Shown here: positions 1,868-60,927 of the stretch, in pieces
Layout: each line of letters starts with the position of its first letter
How positions within the stretch are numbered: the first letter of the stretch is position 1
From: a virus
Lineage: Duplodnaviria > Caudoviricetes
Length of the DNA: 64,000 bases
Direction: 5' to 3' (one strand)
IMG/VR virus record: IMGVR_UViG_3300031867_000038
Coordinates: 9,954-73,953 of that record
Notes under the pieces: generated by a model
Databases searched by the model: none
What the model saw: only the letters and a program-made list of their open reading frames with translations
Told to the model about the DNA's origin: nothing
Made by a program: the position numbers and the translations under genes

Positions 1868-3181
1868 ATGTCAAAAATAAAAAGTGTTTCTACTTATGAC
1901 GGTTCTAGTTGGGGAACGGCAGTTCCTTTAGGAGCTGATGATGTTAATGTAGATATAACAAGTGCAACTACTAGTCCTACAGTTTCTTCAAGTACCGCGG
2001 CAGAGTTAACAACCGCAACAGATGTTATTGTTGCTTCAGGAGATACTAATGCTACTGCTTGGACAAAATTTAATAGATTTAGAAACAGAGTTACAAAAAC
2101 TTTTGGAAATTATATTGGAGGGTCTGTTCAACCCAGTTATAATGCAACAGGGAGTAATAGTACATTTTATCCCACTTCTGTTATTAATAATTACATGAAA
2201 AATGTAATTGGTCTAACTGGCACTAGTACGCCTACAATTAATGGTAGCGCACAAACCGTGGCGTCAGCTCTTAGTTCATTAAATGATAATATTATTCGAC
2301 CAAATCTGCTGGATAACTGGTATTTTGTTGGCGGTGGCTCACAGAGCGGAAATGGCGTATTCCCAATTAACCAGAGAGGACAGACAAGTTATAGCACGAA
2401 GGGGTACGGAATTGACAGGTGGTACAGGAGTACAGTAGCGGCAGGAAATATTTTGGTTAATGCCAATGGATTAACTGCAAGCACAAATCTGTTCATCCGT
2501 CAGGCAAACGACATACAGCCACAGTTGATCGGTAAAACGCTTACCTTCTCAGTTTTGTGGAAAAATGCTGGCTTGAGCTCTATTACACATGTTTTTGAAG
2601 ATGGTTATCGTTTTACAGCAAGTAGCGTAGATTACACAAAGCTTGTATATTCTTACGGGTTGACAGTGCTACCGCATGAACTTGTTGGATTGTTTGTAAC
2701 ACCAAGTGATTATATCATAGCAATCAAATTGGAAGTTGGAGATACATCGACCCTCGCACATAAGGAAGGTGACATATGGGTGCTGAATGAGCTTCCGGAC
2801 TATCAGACCGAATTGCAAAAATGCCTCGGCTATTATTACAAAACGAGTAACACTACCGCCATATTTGGCTCAGGGATTATCACAGGCTCTGCAAAGCGCG
2901 TGATCATGAATTTTACTGTACCTGTCCCGTTTGTGAGATCCATTTCAAGCGTGAGTATGCAGGATTACACTTTGAGATTAGGCACTTCAGGCTACAGCGC
3001 TTTAACTCCCAACGAAACATATATACAACCGGAGAGCTTGTCGGTGCTGTTACCCTCAAAATACAGTACATCAGTCAGAGTAACGGATTTGCATAAAGAC
3101 GCAACAGGCGATCCGAACAATAGCGCAATTATCGTTGCCGCCAGAGGCCTAGAAATATCCTGTGAACCAGTTGAGACTTAA
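1868..3181 (+). CDS. tail fibre / receptor-binding protein
   Basis: S/T-rich N-terminus, then NLLDNWYF...PINQRGQTSY...GYGIDRW motif typical of Firmicute phage fibre C-terminal modules; GC-richer 3' half. Confidence 0.65.
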   Translation: MSKIKSVSTYDGSSWGTAVPLGADDVNVDITSATTSPTVSSSTAAELTTATDVIVASGDTNATAWTKFNRFRNRVTKTFGNYIGGSVQPSYNATGSNSTFYPTSVINNYMKNVIGLTGTSTPTINGSAQTVASALSSLNDNIIRPNLLDNWYFVGGGSQSGNGVFPINQRGQTSYSTKGYGIDRWYRSTVAAGNILVNANGLTASTNLFIRQANDIQPQLIGKTLTFSVLWKNAGLSSITHVFEDGYRFTASSVDYTKLVYSYGLTVLPHELVGLFVTPSDYIIAIKLEVGDTSTLAHKEGDIWVLNELPDYQTELQKCLGYYYKTSNTTAIFGSGIITGSAKRVIMNFTVPVPFVRSISSVSMQDYTLRLGTSGYSALTPNETYIQPESLSVLLPSKYSTSVRVTDLHKDATGDPNNSAIIVAARGLEISCEPVET

Positions 3182-9512: not shown

Positions 9513-10151
9513 TTAATAGTGTAAAGAAATAGTAACATTATCAGTAGAATGAATAGATTTATGTTGAATGATTTCTATAAGAATAGTTTCATATAACAAA
9601 GGAAGAATATCATTTTGTACAATTGCAGAGATTTCATTATGTTCATTTTCAATTATAAAATGATGAAAATTAATATTCTTACGTGTAAAATCTTCTTTAT
9701 CAGTTTTAAATCTGCGACAAATTTCTTCGCAGTCAGGTTCTACTTCACGGTTAAGCTGTCTCAATAATCTTGTTTTATCTGAGCATGTTATATAAATAGG
9801 AATAATTGTGTATTCATCCCAAGGTAAATTTAAAAGTTGTTTTACGCCTGCAATATTAAATACTCCTATATTAATTTTATCAGATCGAATTGAATTTTTT
9901 AGAGTACCATAGCGCCAGCCTCTAAATTCTGCATACTCCAGATAATCTCCATTATCTAGATATTTTTGAGATTCTTCATCTGAAATAAAATGATAATCAA
10001 CCCAGTTTTGTTCATACTCACGCGGCGGCCGCGTAGTTGAAGAAATAATTTCATGGCAAAGATAAGGAGATTGTTTTACAATCTCCTTTTGAATTGTATC
10101 TTTACCAGCTCCCGCCGCCCCAAATAATGCTACAATATATTTTTTATTCAT
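9513..10151 (-). CDS. gmk: guanylate kinase
   Basis: GAAGAGKDT, TTRPPREYEQNWVDYHF, YGT; likely start ATG 10151. Confidence 0.9.
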   Translation of the reverse strand: MNKKYIVALFGAAGAGKDTIQKEIVKQSPYLCHEIISSTTRPPREYEQNWVDYHFISDEESQKYLDNGDYLEYAEFRGWRYGTLKNSIRSDKINIGVFNIAGVKQLLNLPWDEYTIIPIYITCSDKTRLLRQLNREVEPDCEEICRRFKTDKEDFTRKNINFHHFIIENEHNEISAIVQNDILPLLYETILIEIIQHKSIHSTDNVTISLHY

Positions 10152-57505: not shown

Positions 57506-59002
57506 TTAAGTAATCGCCATATAACGATTACTATTAAGTTTGTCCATCATCAGATCAGTCCCAGTTTTACCTGATACTACCTGCTCAAACAACACTGGGC
57601 TAAATCCTGATACAAAACTAATATCTGGACCAGAATCAAGAATTGTGTTATCTCTTGCATCTACATTCCAATAAACAAGCTTCGGTATTTTAATACCATA
57701 GTGAAGCCAGCTATTGCGAATTTTTTCCATTTCAGTTGCAGCGGAGTCAGTTGTCCAATAAGAGGAACTATTACCACGACCCCAATCATTCCATGATCGA
57801 GTTCCCTCATCAATCTGCATATCTGAAATCACAACGATTGTATCAGGGAGATCTTCTACTTTTGCTTTTCCGCTGATAATCATATTAAGCAGAAGATCAA
57901 AAACAGCTTCCAGATTAGTATTATCACACAAATTTGTTCGATAAATTCGCATGACCTTATCTGTCAAATCTGCGCCCTCAATATGAATAAGTTGAGGTCT
58001 ACTAGCAAAGCTAATATAATGATCTTTAAAAGCTCCACGATTACGCTCAGCTGCATACATTCCCAGACCAATTGCGACATTAATAGGAGTCCCATACATA
58101 CTCCCAGAAGTATCTACAACAGGCAGAATAGAATGAGTTGAACCATTAAAATAATCAGGAAGGTTATCCCAATATTTTTCAACAGCTACTCGCTCTGAAT
58201 CTTCCATCTTGTAATGACATGCATCAAGAGCCTTTTCTACTACCTCATAAGGATAAAGAGTAGTGGCATTAACTTTAGTAGACTTATCTTTAATAAAAGC
58301 TTCATACTTAGCTTTAATAAGATCACGTCTAGCAAAAGCATTTTTATAGATCAAACCTGCTTTTGAAGGGATTTTATCAAATTCAATTTGATCCCACTGG
58401 TTAGAAGACATTAACTTCTCTACCACTTTGATACGAGTACGCAATTCACTAAGAATTTTACGATACTGTTTATGACTCAGTGAGAGAGAGCTTCTCAGTT
58501 TATTTGCAACGCGCGCAGTTTCTTTGCTGGAAGCATTTTCAGAAGGCATCCATTTTGCCAAAAGAGAAGGAGTTTTGCACTTGGTATCCAACAGAAGCTG
58601 CTTCTCAATAATGCTAAAAGCGATCTTTTCTGCGGGGGTGCCTTCACAGATATAGATTAGATCATCCCACCGCCCATACTCTGGAATAAGAGCGATATTA
58701 CGAAGAGCTATATCAATATGGTTAATACACAGCCACCGATAAACTGTGCGGAAGAAGCGCCGCTCGCCCTGGCCGCCGCGCACATCACGCAGATAAAATA
58801 GGCATTTAAGAGCATAAAGCTCATTTTCATACAATGCATTACTAAATAGTGTAATAGCATCTGCATCAGATCTTTTGCGGTAAGCTCCACCAAAAGCAAA
58901 AAGATCATATAGAGCTGAATTAGTGGATTTATGGGCGAGTGCGCCATTTTCAGTGCGTGTATAATTCTGCTGGTTATTAAGGCTAGAAATAAAAGAGTTC
59001 AT
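57506..59002 (-). CDS. DUF2828 TROVE/Ro60-like protein with vWA domain
   Basis: TENGA, FYLRDVRGGQGERR, YGRWDD, AKWMPSE, VDTSGSM MIDAS. Confidence 0.85.
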   Translation of the reverse strand: MNSFISSLNNQQNYTRTENGALAHKSTNSALYDLFAFGGAYRKRSDADAITLFSNALYENELYALKCLFYLRDVRGGQGERRFFRTVYRWLCINHIDIALRNIALIPEYGRWDDLIYICEGTPAEKIAFSIIEKQLLLDTKCKTPSLLAKWMPSENASSKETARVANKLRSSLSLSHKQYRKILSELRTRIKVVEKLMSSNQWDQIEFDKIPSKAGLIYKNAFARRDLIKAKYEAFIKDKSTKVNATTLYPYEVVEKALDACHYKMEDSERVAVEKYWDNLPDYFNGSTHSILPVVDTSGSMYGTPINVAIGLGMYAAERNRGAFKDHYISFASRPQLIHIEGADLTDKVMRIYRTNLCDNTNLEAVFDLLLNMIISGKAKVEDLPDTIVVISDMQIDEGTRSWNDWGRGNSSSYWTTDSAATEMEKIRNSWLHYGIKIPKLVYWNVDARDNTILDSGPDISFVSGFSPVLFEQVVSGKTGTDLMMDKLNSNRYMAIT

Positions 59003-59185: not shown

Positions 59186-59416
59186 TCACTCTCCATAAAA
59201 AATAGCCCAATCATGTTGATCATATGTAGTATATCTTTTTTTACAATCAGGGCAATAAATAGTAAAAAAAGAATCATTTTTATCACTATCGTAATCTATA
59301 TGTAGATCTTCTTCTTCAAAAGTAAAAATACATCCACATTTATTACATGTTATTTTATAGTGTTTAATACCAGGTGAAAGAATTTTTATCATATTATTCT
59401 CCTTATGGCGCCGCAC
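59186..59416 (-). CDS. Zn-ribbon hypothetical protein
   Basis: CNKCGC...CPDC; true start probably after the tRNA (MIKILSPG). Confidence 0.55.
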   Translation of the reverse strand: MRRHKENNMIKILSPGIKHYKITCNKCGCIFTFEEEDLHIDYDSDKNDSFFTIYCPDCKKRYTTYDQHDWAIFYGE

Positions 59417-59497
59417 GTAGGTCCCGCCCCCAACTAGGCTCCCACCTAGCCAACCGATTTCAAGTCGGAGCCAGCGCGCTTGTCTGGTTCATGCGGC
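59406..59497 (-). tRNA. tRNA-Ser(UGA), non-canonical D- and T-loops
   Basis: GCCGCAU/GUGCGGC acceptor, G73-CCA, loop CUUGAAA, long variable arm with GGGA loop; T-loop GGCGGGA. Confidence 0.7.
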
Positions 59498-59501
59498 GTA
59501 A

Positions 59502-59608
59502 AATATGCGAATAAGGATTTGCACCTTATATAACATACAGCGTTTGTCTCGGTTAGTTTCAATTGTCTCTTGTCTCACTCTAGCGTCTACCTATTCCGCC
59601 ATCGCATA
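59502..59608 (-). ncRNA. tRNA-Leu-like scaffold with 33-nt repeat loop instead of an anticodon
   Basis: UAUGCGA/UCGCAUA stem, D-arm GGCGGAAUAGGUAGACGC, T-arm UAAGG-UGCAAAU-CCUUA; no anticodon loop, no encoded CCA. Confidence 0.7.
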
Positions 59609-59621
59609 TTAAATTAATTAT

Positions 59622-60152
59622 TTAGGGCCATTCTCCAAGAGGTTTACCTAGATTACCACGTTCAATATCGGTATTATAATAAACTCCATTTAGATCTGCA
59701 TCTTCAAAGATCTCGCTAGCAATATCTTGATACAAAGTGCTAAGTACACCATGACAATCATTCAGATTATCATTAAAGAACTGTACTACACAATTTTTAA
59801 ATACAACATAAGTTGCACTATAAAACCAGGTTTCATCACCAGGTGTTACTGAATAAGCATAGACAGGATTCCCACTAAAAGCAGTATCAAAAAGCTCTTT
59901 CTGCGTTGTGAAAGCAATATTACTAACTGGACCGTCAATAACAATCTTCAGTACAATATTACCAAAAATTTTCTCTTCAGGAAGCAGACACCAAAGAGCC
60001 GCATTTTTATCTCCATTATTTCCAGCAATAGTGACTGTCAATTCATCATAGTCAATATTAAATGCAAGCTGAGGATCTGGATCAAATAAGGCTTGCAGTT
60101 TATTAACATAGGTAATCCAGGGTGGTGCGAGTTTTAATCTAATATTAGACAT
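59622..60152 (-). CDS. hypothetical protein
   Basis: AGGAG RBS; start 60152 or 60158 (the ORF-track extension overlaps a tRNA). Confidence 0.65.
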   Translation of the reverse strand: MSNIRLKLAPPWITYVNKLQALFDPDPQLAFNIDYDELTVTIAGNNGDKNAALWCLLPEEKIFGNIVLKIVIDGPVSNIAFTTQKELFDTAFSGNPVYAYSVTPGDETWFYSATYVVFKNCVVQFFNDNLNDCHGVLSTLYQDIASEIFEDADLNGVYYNTDIERGNLGKPLGEWP

Positions 60153-60446: not shown

Positions 60447-60533
60447 TGGTGCGGGTGGCCGGACTTGAACCGGCACGGGCTAAAGCCCAACAGATTTTAA
60501 GTCTGTGGTGTCTACCTATTCCACCACACCCGC
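60447..60533 (-). tRNA. tRNA-Leu(UAA)
   Basis: Canonical cloverleaf, CUUAAAA loop, GGUUCAAGUCC, ACCA. Confidence 0.95.
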
Positions 60534-60603: not shown

Positions 60604-60645
60604 CTTTATCTTACAAATATATTATATCAAAAATTTTTTAAATTT

Positions 60646-60927
60646 TCAAATGTCAGTATTTTCTCTATATTCATATTCTTCTTCGGAGCAATAGTTCCAT
60701 CCACAATGAGTCATGGCATTATCATAATACAATTTTTCATCTTCTTCTGATTCCCACTGTGAATCCCAGCCGCGTTCCATATATTCATATGTTTCAGCAT
60801 TTTCATAAGCATATTCATTAGACATATCATTAATTTCATTTTCAGATACATCATCTTCAAATGCTACATACTCTTCATAGTCAGTGCCGCAGTACCCATT
60901 ATTACCAAAAAATATTACATACTTCAT
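60646..60927 (-). CDS. acidic hypothetical protein
   Basis: AAAGGAG RBS before ATG 60927. Confidence 0.6.
   Translation of the reverse strand: MKYVIFFGNNGYCGTDYEEYVAFEDDVSENEINDMSNEYAYENAETYEYMERGWDSQWESEEDEKLYYDNAMTHCGWNYCSEEEYEYRENTDI

Follow-up and report, generated by a model that had tools for sequence, protein, structure and literature searches.

Non-coding RNAs that imitate transfer RNA (tRNA) are already known from several settings, among them transfer-messenger RNA (tmRNA), the bacterial Y RNAs and the tRNA-like ends of plant-virus RNAs. In phages, the C4 RNA of P1 and P7 and the CI RNA of P4 are regulatory RNAs that are processed by RNase P and act antisense to nearby phage targets. 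YrlA and other bacterial Y RNAs do not decode but carry a module that resembles the D-arm, T-arm and acceptor of tRNA, are found in phages too, and are in some cases substrates of tRNA enzymes (Chen et al. 2014, PMC4201824). Allo-tRNAs, described in PMC5389517, are unusual class II-like tRNAs of bacteria and phages with 8/4 or 9/3 acceptor/T structures. The element described here is a tRNA-like RNA gene of 106 nt on the minus strand of a 64,000-nt stretch of tailed-phage DNA (IMG/VR record IMGVR_UViG_3300031867_000038, positions 9,954 to 73,953; "the window" below), from a phage recovered from bovine gut samples. It was noticed for three copies of GAGACA in a loop set into a tRNA frame, and was originally predicted to be a sponge or decoy for an RNA-binding protein or RNase toxin. 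Comparison with relatives indicates that the element is probably an intact gene for a non-decoding RNA derived from tRNA-Leu, and it is a member of a large RNA family found in phages and prophages, most of them of Bacillota. For a phage family of hundreds that keeps the elbow of leucine tRNA nearly letter-perfect while having no anticodon arm, no published description was found in the full-text literature, where coverage of subscription journals is thin and novelty is hence unproven; the family looks like an undescribed, widespread variant of tRNA mimicry.

A conserved tRNA frame without a decoding arm

The element has the acceptor stem, the D-arm with G18 and G19 and the T-arm with U54, C56 and A58 of a canonical tRNA, with the exceptions of a G at position 55 and a T-stem of 6 bp, but has no 5-bp anticodon stem, 7-nt loop, U33 or anticodon (Table 1; the element is numbered on the minus strand from i=1 at 59608 to i=106 at 59503). 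U8 and G9 are present between the acceptor stem and the D-arm, and the D-loop is an exact match to that of the window's genuine tRNA-Leu(UAA) at 60447-60533 (minus strand). A foreign insert replaces the decoding arm and is closed, at the position of the anticodon stem, by a helix (UAGAGUG/CGCUGUA) with six of seven pairs and one G-G mismatch. This anatomy had been described accurately, wherever it could be checked, in the original prediction: a natural tRNA frame with intact acceptor, Leu-type D-arm and T-arm, a closing stem with a single mismatch, and three GAGACA copies. ARAGORN called the element neither as tRNA nor as tmRNA, and the Rfam tRNA model (RF00005) did not match it even at E up to 10. 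The same holds for its relatives: none of 163 family representatives was called by ARAGORN and Rfam 15 has no entry for the family, which gene callers and Rfam currently overlook.

The strong evidence for the frame is that of relatives and not of one copy's sequence taken by itself, and by this measure the scaffold lies far beyond chance. Homologues of the DUF2828 protein encoded nearby led to 80 loci, among which L003, L018 (with two copies) and L072/L073 carry the same D-arm and odd T-loop with differing, compensated acceptor stems. Two pattern scans of IMG/VR, with D-arm and T-loop motifs 40-70 and 71-101 nt apart and counts that are lower bounds, gave at least 242 family copies, at least 203 of them unique. 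Among the matches listed, a perfect 7-bp acceptor stem in the expected register was found in 207 of the 242 copies and a perfect 6-bp T-stem in 226. The window element is an exact match to the family D-arm UGGCGGAAUAGGUARACG and T-loop UGYARAU, with 7/7 and 6/6 pairs in the two stems. In a leave-one-out covariance model (R2) it scored 75.4 bits (E 4.6e-18), whereas the real tRNA-Leu of the phage reached 45 bits; covariance model R1 gave it 77.4 bits, and under the first covariance model the scores were 66-72 bits for members not used in training and at most 45 for real tRNA-Leu genes.

Invariant or nearly so across the family are U8, G9, the entire D-arm, the U before the T-stem and the T-loop UGCAAAU, with the core U54-G55-C56-A57-A58. 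The last linker base is U in all 164 sequence clusters, and the base before it is A in 89%, among the matches listed. The T-stem has 6 bp in place of 5 bp, which gives an acceptor/T helix of 13 bp. The helices covary strongly: in an alignment of 64 members the three helices were 98.8% paired, a percentage inflated by pre-selection of the alignment for good pairing, as against 72% with shuffled partners and 36-43% with slid partners; both sides had changed at 12 of 16 pairs, and all seven acceptor pairs covaried. Acceptor pair 7-66 is A-U in the window copy and G-C in 61 of the 64 members, and the sixth T-stem pair, also A-U in the window copy, is G-C in 58, A-U in three and G-U in three. These compensatory changes from G-C to A-U argue for selection over decay.

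The same evidence bears on a reading in which the element is a dead tRNA-Leu gene, either a pseudogene or the functionless relic of a tRNA-Leu that a group I intron had formerly split. Related phages do carry tRNA-Leu(UAA) genes holding group I introns (L024, L025) or a 49-nt insert (L010, L013), the stretch GAGACAAACGC, made up of the third repeat and its flank, is similar to the intron core GAGACAACGCC of L024 and L025, and the window insert is predicted to be unstructured. However, the helices are perfectly kept with compensatory changes; G55, the 6-bp T-stem and the U48 counterpart are conserved across hundreds of very different phages; the insert flanks in the family hold no remnants of anticodon-stem halves; and an identical sequence occurs in an independent sample (run X2). 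A dead gene is, on this record, scarcely credible. A tRNA-Leu containing a group I intron was considered separately and rejected, the insert being 33 nt long against about 200 nt or more, with a P3-P9 core, for such an intron, in line with the earlier view that the insert is too short for self-splicing.

A tRNA that matures to a decoding form by protein-catalysed splicing of a short intron has a negligible likelihood. Excising 28 nt between the GA repeats would produce a loop of 7 nt, GACAAAC, in which CAA, a leucine anticodon, occupies positions 34-36. Yet such a product would carry A33 where a tRNA has U33, together with a mismatched G-G pair in the stem, a variable loop of 7 nt, G55 and an acceptor/T helix of 13 bp; conserved halves of an anticodon loop are absent from the family, and the 31-nt middle region of the Sha1 member is too small for an anticodon arm. 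Bacteria and their phages are not known to have a bulge-helix-bulge splicing system. No joint in the RNA or DNA contigs corresponds to a splice junction in the loop, the joints that were seen stemming from other family members.

Table 1. Positions of the tRNA-like element, its parts and the likely upstream promoter in the window
Feature	Position	Strand	Detail
Whole tRNA-like RNA gene	59503-59608	minus	106 nt, first acceptor base to discriminator U; CCA not encoded
Acceptor stem, 5' strand UAUGCGA	59602-59608	minus	7/7 pairs with UCGCAUA, 59504-59510
Acceptor stem, 3' strand UCGCAUA, with discriminator U (59503)	59503-59510	minus	
D-arm GCG-GAAUAGGUAGA-CGC	59583-59599	minus	Leu type, with A14, A15, G18, G19
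Closing stem, 5' strand UAGAGUG	59576-59582	minus	occupies anticodon-stem position
A-rich loop, predicted unstructured (cargo)	59543-59575	minus	33 nt
GAGACAA copies 1 and 2	59563-59576 (59576-59570, 59569-59563)	minus	perfect 7-nt tandem duplication
Third GAGACAA	59544-59550	minus	
Closing stem, 3' strand CGCUGUA	59536-59542	minus	
Linker UGUUAU, ending in U48 counterpart (Levitt partner of A15)	59530-59535	minus	
T-arm AUAAGG-UGCAAAU-CCUUAU	59511-59529	minus	6/6 pairs; T-loop with G at position 55
Likely promoter TTGAAA, 17 nt, TG-extended TATAAT	60621-60649	minus	11/12 consensus matches

The interrupted tRNA-Leu genes of related phages differ among themselves. In L024 (about 2490-2860) and L025 (about 2710-3170), tRNA-Leu(UAA) is broken after U34 by full-size group I introns, of which that of L025 is larger and repeat-rich; their core reads GAGACAACGCCGAGCUAAG and resembles the Azoarcus-type core. 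In L010 (212-344) and L013 (362-494), the tRNA-Leu(UAA) orthologous to that of the window encodes CCA and is otherwise perfect, and the 49-nt insert, with a hairpin CCAG-UGACAAUUAG-CUGG, stands between the 5' anticodon-stem strand CAGAC and the loop UUAAAAU. These two genes were missed by ARAGORN and are followed, as in the window, by a small zinc-ribbon ORF; the insert may be a mini-intron or may mark a disabled gene.

The variable insert and its repeats

Within the conserved frame, the middle domain varies by lineage in sequence, length and fold, and holds no anticodon arm in register. At least 164 sequence clusters were found, of 37-96 nt, a span bounded by the gaps allowed in the search; among the matches listed, conservation is limited to the two or three bases at its start and the three or four at its end. 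No reading frame is conserved among inserts of 31-96 nt. The smallest member, that of Lactobacillus phage Sha1, has a 31-nt middle region made up of a 9-nt linker and a single hairpin. On average the middle domains are slightly more structured than shuffled sequences (mean z -0.94), and a helix beside the T-arm, considered as a general feature and rejected, is in modest excess over controls (mean 6.0 pairs against 5.0) and absent from the window copy (four pairs). An identical acceptor stem, GUGCUUG, occurs with unrelated inserts (L082, L087, L103, L145 and L193 against L156, L160 and L163), and the converse, identical inserts paired with different acceptor stems, is seen as well; frame and cargo seem to be exchanged independently. 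In L159 (11362-11624, minus strand) two members stand in tandem, 5 nt apart, the second with a 95-nt insert holding a canonical T-arm-like hairpin (GGGUUCGAUUCCC), that is, an extra T-loop within the cargo.

The window's own insert is predicted to be unstructured, in keeping with a single strand on display. In thermodynamic terms the closing stem is marginal, and it appears in the minimum-energy fold only, where the middle region has -1.6 kcal/mol; this region is less structured than random, 194 of 200 shuffles folding at least equally well (z +1.56). The folding energy of the whole element was uninformative (z -0.86).

The three GAGACAA copies (the positions given earlier, 59571, 59564 and 59545, mark the lowest coordinate of each GAGACA core) consist of a tandem pair and a third, separate copy. 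One 6-mer occurring at least three times in the 53-nt middle region was found in 0.4% of dinucleotide and 1.5% of mononucleotide shuffles. Across the whole window GAGACAA is not enriched, with six occurrences against 5.98 expected, and Tandem Repeats Finder called no array at the element. The closest relative, L003, whose Ro-like protein is 61% identical to that of the window, has one AAGACAAUU only, inside a 75-nt insert that is unrelated in all other respects; a 10-bp stem with another sequence closes this insert where the window has its weak stem. Among the matches listed, the window's copy alone of the 164 family clusters has a 6-mer repeated three times. The original prediction had called for a search for relatives with a conserved scaffold and a variable number of repeats: the scaffold is indeed conserved, whereas the inserts do not vary in repeat number but are wholly different, and the loop is not conserved in the family, an outcome that the original prediction had named as speaking against it. 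With the scaffold conserved and the cargo not, the repeats are a local feature. The triple GAGACAA is a lineage-specific trait of a variable insert, arose partly through a 7-nt duplication and does not form the conserved functional core. A looser motif, GRCAA, recurs in inserts, AGACA in 28 and GGCAA in 23 of the 164 clusters among the matches listed; the excess over the approximately 6% expected per 5-mer is judged to be weak, and it was not relied on.

These results bear directly on the proposal that the tRNA frame stabilises three GAGACA(A) sites that titrate an RNA-binding protein or bait an RNase toxin. The loop is predicted to be single-stranded, the triple 6-mer is improbable by chance (P about 0.004-0.015), and some family members adjoin anti-defence genes (Tad2-like, MazG). 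Metatranscriptome contigs from two studies, identical to 59548-60085 and 59548-59765, span the upstream ORF and the 5' part of the element, and both RNA-library contigs (runs X20 and X4) end at 59548, within the third repeat at GAG|ACAA, whereas the DNA run X2 from another sample reads through 59548 with identical sequence. The MazF of E. coli cleaves 5' of ACA, a specificity with which such a stop would fit. The shared contig end is a weak hint of an RNA end within the loop; it could equally come from low depth, from DNA carry-over or from a polymorphism at which the assembly graph breaks. All the RNA-seq runs are assembled contigs, which carry no read-level ends, strand or abundance, and 59503-59547, which has no RNA cover at 100% identity, is uninformative either way.

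Several findings tell against the same proposal. Two of the copies are a plain 7-nt duplication, the nearest relative has a single copy, the repeat is confined to one of 164 clusters among the matches listed, and GAGACAA is not enriched elsewhere in the window, so that tandem sites were not upheld as a conserved feature. No candidate binder or toxin was identified; the MazF enzymes of Bacillota prefer UACAU, which is absent from the loop; and the 59548 end could equally be an assembly-breaking polymorphism or a low-coverage gap. An analogy once drawn with phage pseudo-antitoxin repeats against ToxN also fails, as the repeat unit is 7 nt and not about 36 nt, and no ToxN/AbiQ-type match was found in the ten flanking ORFs (Pfam at E up to 0.01, PHROGs at E up to 0.001). 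A sponge or decoy is therefore improbable as an account of the element; a binder or nuclease specific to the window's GAGACAA loop, for which the shared contig end is a weak hint, has a low probability.

An antisense guide function for the middle domain was tried and rejected. The longest complementary words between middle domains and their own 6-15 kb loci were at the level of shuffled controls, and the value from RNAduplex over the entire genome of Sha1, -28.6 kcal/mol, lay within the range of the shuffles (-25.6 to -31.7).

Genomic setting, relatives and hosts

In the window, the element sits in a transcript of tRNAs and an ORF. Downstream of the likely promoter (Table 1) the order is tRNA-Leu, tRNA-Ser, ORF, element and a Ser-type tRNA, and no terminator-like site was found from the promoter down to 58900. 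The element begins 13 nt past the stop codon of the ORF, and the Ser-type tRNA follows about 4 nt beyond it. This GC-rich Ser(UGA)-type tRNA (59406-59498, minus strand) encodes CCA; its variable arm is long, its D-loop lacks GG and its T-loop reads GGCGGGA, and it was missed by ARAGORN and Rfam. Directly after it comes a 76-aa zinc-ribbon ORF (59186-59416, minus strand; phrog_2834) that has a ribosome-binding site of its own. In the runs that gave the contigs over the element, further contigs match the D-arm and T-arm flanks only and have a different middle, pointing to additional family members in rumen samples.

The family behaves as a stand-alone accessory gene. No protein neighbour is constant: at about 120 loci, the nearest ORFs of 90 aa or more on each side gave heterogeneous Pfam tallies. 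The commonest context, at about 10%, is a DUF722, DUF1492 or Sigma70_r4 late activator upstream and a terminase small subunit or HNH gene downstream; in the Lactobacillus phages Sha1 and H1-Guo the element lies between the late-gene activator and HNH/terminase genes. A tRNA lies within 500 nt in 36 of 163 representatives, and 122 downstream neighbours include, as anti-defence genes, two Tad2-like and two MazG. A scan of one genome per species found prophage copies in 85 species, mostly Bacillota, with Lactobacillaceae, Bacillaceae, Paenibacillus, Clostridia and Lachnospiraceae as host groups. Unannotated copies are present in GenBank genomes of cultured phages, including Sha1, phiJL-1, LP65, Lpa804, ATCC 8014-B2 and others, and those in cultured Lactobacillus phages make the function directly testable.

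About 500 nt downstream of the window element is the gene for a Ro-like DUF2828/DUF7788 protein (57506-59002, minus strand), for which the element might serve as a Y-RNA-like (YrlA-like) partner. The neighbour falls into phrog_850, "RNA-binding protein" (4.5e-119), mycobacteriophage genes labelled "Ro-like RNA binding protein" match a part of its gene, and the L003 element is located in the 5' leader of the Ro-like gene; bacterial Y RNAs have tRNA-like domains and are encoded beside Ro60 (PMC4201824). Nevertheless, a family member is present in just five of 81 Ro-like loci (window, L003, L018, L072 and L073), DUF2828 is the next large downstream ORF in two of 122 representatives, and most copies are in phage or prophage contigs of about 20-60 kb in whose scanned flanking ORFs there is no Ro-like gene. 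L002, the closest relative of L003, keeps the Ro-like gene and promoter and is without the element. The GNCGAA motif was not seen on reading by eye, the acceptor is not closed, the topology is opposite to that of YrlA, and the Rfam Y-RNA models were unmatched at E up to 10. When the neighbour's sequence was searched against the PDB, no Ro60 came up and the best match was an unrelated chain at E 0.42, so that the "Ro-like" label rests on PHROG and GenBank annotation only. Ro-like genes adjoin tRNA clusters generally, which explains their occasional proximity to the element, and a Y-RNA partnership is accordingly rated very improbable.

Some further features of these loci were observed. L002 (about 2160-2200) and L003 (1190-1345) show a presence/absence polymorphism of the element, L002 retaining just the first seven bases of the acceptor strand. 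In most of the 60 contigs scanned with ARAGORN (loci L002-L081), the DUF2828/DUF7788 (phrog_850) gene is directly downstream of a tRNA cluster, and these clusters include over-long calls of 82-87 nt for tRNA-Cys, tRNA-Gln, tRNA-Lys and tRNA-Met, as in L015-L017 (3861-3942), about 60 nt before the DUF2828 gene. The over-long calls may be further insert-bearing tRNAs.

Proposed maturation and function

If the gene is intact and its product a tRNA-Leu derivative that does not decode, then RNase P and RNase Z would quite probably excise the RNA from the polycistronic transcript, with addition of CCA and a stable small RNA as the result. The signals for processing by tRNA enzymes are indirect: a U at -1, a U-rich trailer and a CCA that is not encoded. 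In the family, CCA is encoded in four of 159 copies, a U is present at -1 in 47% and at +1 after the discriminator in 53%, and CCA-less tRNA genes of Bacillota that are cut by RNase P and RNase Z show such flanks. The mature RNA might well act in trans, its invariant elbow and D-arm engaging a host factor that binds tRNA, although the case for this is rated a little short of even. Leucyl-tRNA synthetase (LeuRS) is the obvious candidate factor because it does not read the anticodon, as is known from the identity of E. coli tRNA-Leu. The 13-bp acceptor/T helix and G55 could exclude the RNA from EF-Tu, the ribosome and translation. More tentatively, and with appreciably less likelihood, the insert would be the effector, either as a scaffolded small RNA or as a platform for protein, with the tRNA frame providing processing and stability. 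A role exclusively in cis, with the element serving the mRNA around it as a signal for processing or stability, is unlikely.

A more elaborate scheme joins these parts and is itself improbable. The RNAs would be a dedicated class, in Bacillota phages, of mimics of the top half of leucine tRNA, which the invariant G55 elbow and the 13-bp acceptor/T helix would allow host enzymes to mature, and perhaps leucylate, while they are kept off the ribosome; they would serve as counter-defence or takeover RNAs in which the swappable insert confers specificity. The window loop, single-stranded and cut at GAG|ACAA, might then be a GAGACAA bait for an ACA-type endoribonuclease or a substrate of the Ro-like protein.

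Certain points weigh against an intact, functional gene and the steps proposed for it. A discrete RNA of about 106 nt is a prediction, and the RNA-library contigs are assembled, with a depth of about 4.5 and possible DNA carry-over. The alignment used for covariation was pre-selected for good pairing, though the unselected tallies (207/242 and 226/242) agree with it. The discriminator is U in the window copy and, among the matches listed, A in just 59% of the family and U in 23%; the 41% of copies with discriminators other than A weaken a universal model of charging by LeuRS. The middle domain of the window is less structured than random, unlike the family trend; this makes the copy atypical, and its function might be in the course of being lost or altered.

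Comparison with known systems

ToxI and phage pseudo-ToxI share with the element a phage-borne RNA with short repeated motifs that could engage an endoribonuclease. However, ToxI units are about 34-36 nt, pseudoknotted and located beside a ToxN-type gene, whereas the unit here is 7 nt and its repeats are not conserved; the conspicuous GAGACA repeats of the window are a local peculiarity and not the key to the element. C4 and CI are likewise small phage RNAs with tRNA-like features for maturation and a variable part for specificity; for the element family, however, neither the 6-15 kb around each copy nor the complete genome of Sha1 showed excess complementarity. In YrlA, the RNA ends form the Ro-binding stem, the "acceptor" is closed, a GNCGAA motif is present and the gene lies beside Ro60; the family, by contrast, has open acceptor ends, no Ro motif, and does not track Ro-like genes.

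The tRNA-like domain of tmRNA resembles the element in having an acceptor/T helix with an elbow and a large non-tRNA insertion at the site of the anticodon arm. It differs in its reduced D-arm, canonical T-loop, alanine identity (G3-U70), pseudoknots and tag reading frame; in the element there is no G3-U70 pair, the loop holds several stop codons, and ARAGORN found no tmRNA. Allo-tRNAs (PMC5389517) keep a 12-bp helix and an anticodon arm and decode, while the element family has a 7/6 arrangement (13 bp) and no anticodon.

In summary, the element resembles the class II tRNA-Leu of bacteria and phages, with which it shares a 7-bp acceptor stem, U8, an identical D-loop AAUAGGUAGA, a core of the A15/U48 type, U54, C56 and A58, and a CCA-less gene layout with U at -1 and a U-rich trailer. 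From it the element departs in the absence of an anticodon arm, in G55 in place of U or pseudouridine 55, in a 6-bp T-stem and in a hypervariable middle domain. G55, the extra T-stem pair and the Leu D-arm together point to a specific factor, from host or phage, that would read the tRNA elbow, and the variable insert resembles a natural counterpart of the "tRNA scaffold" with which biotechnology stabilises an RNA cargo.

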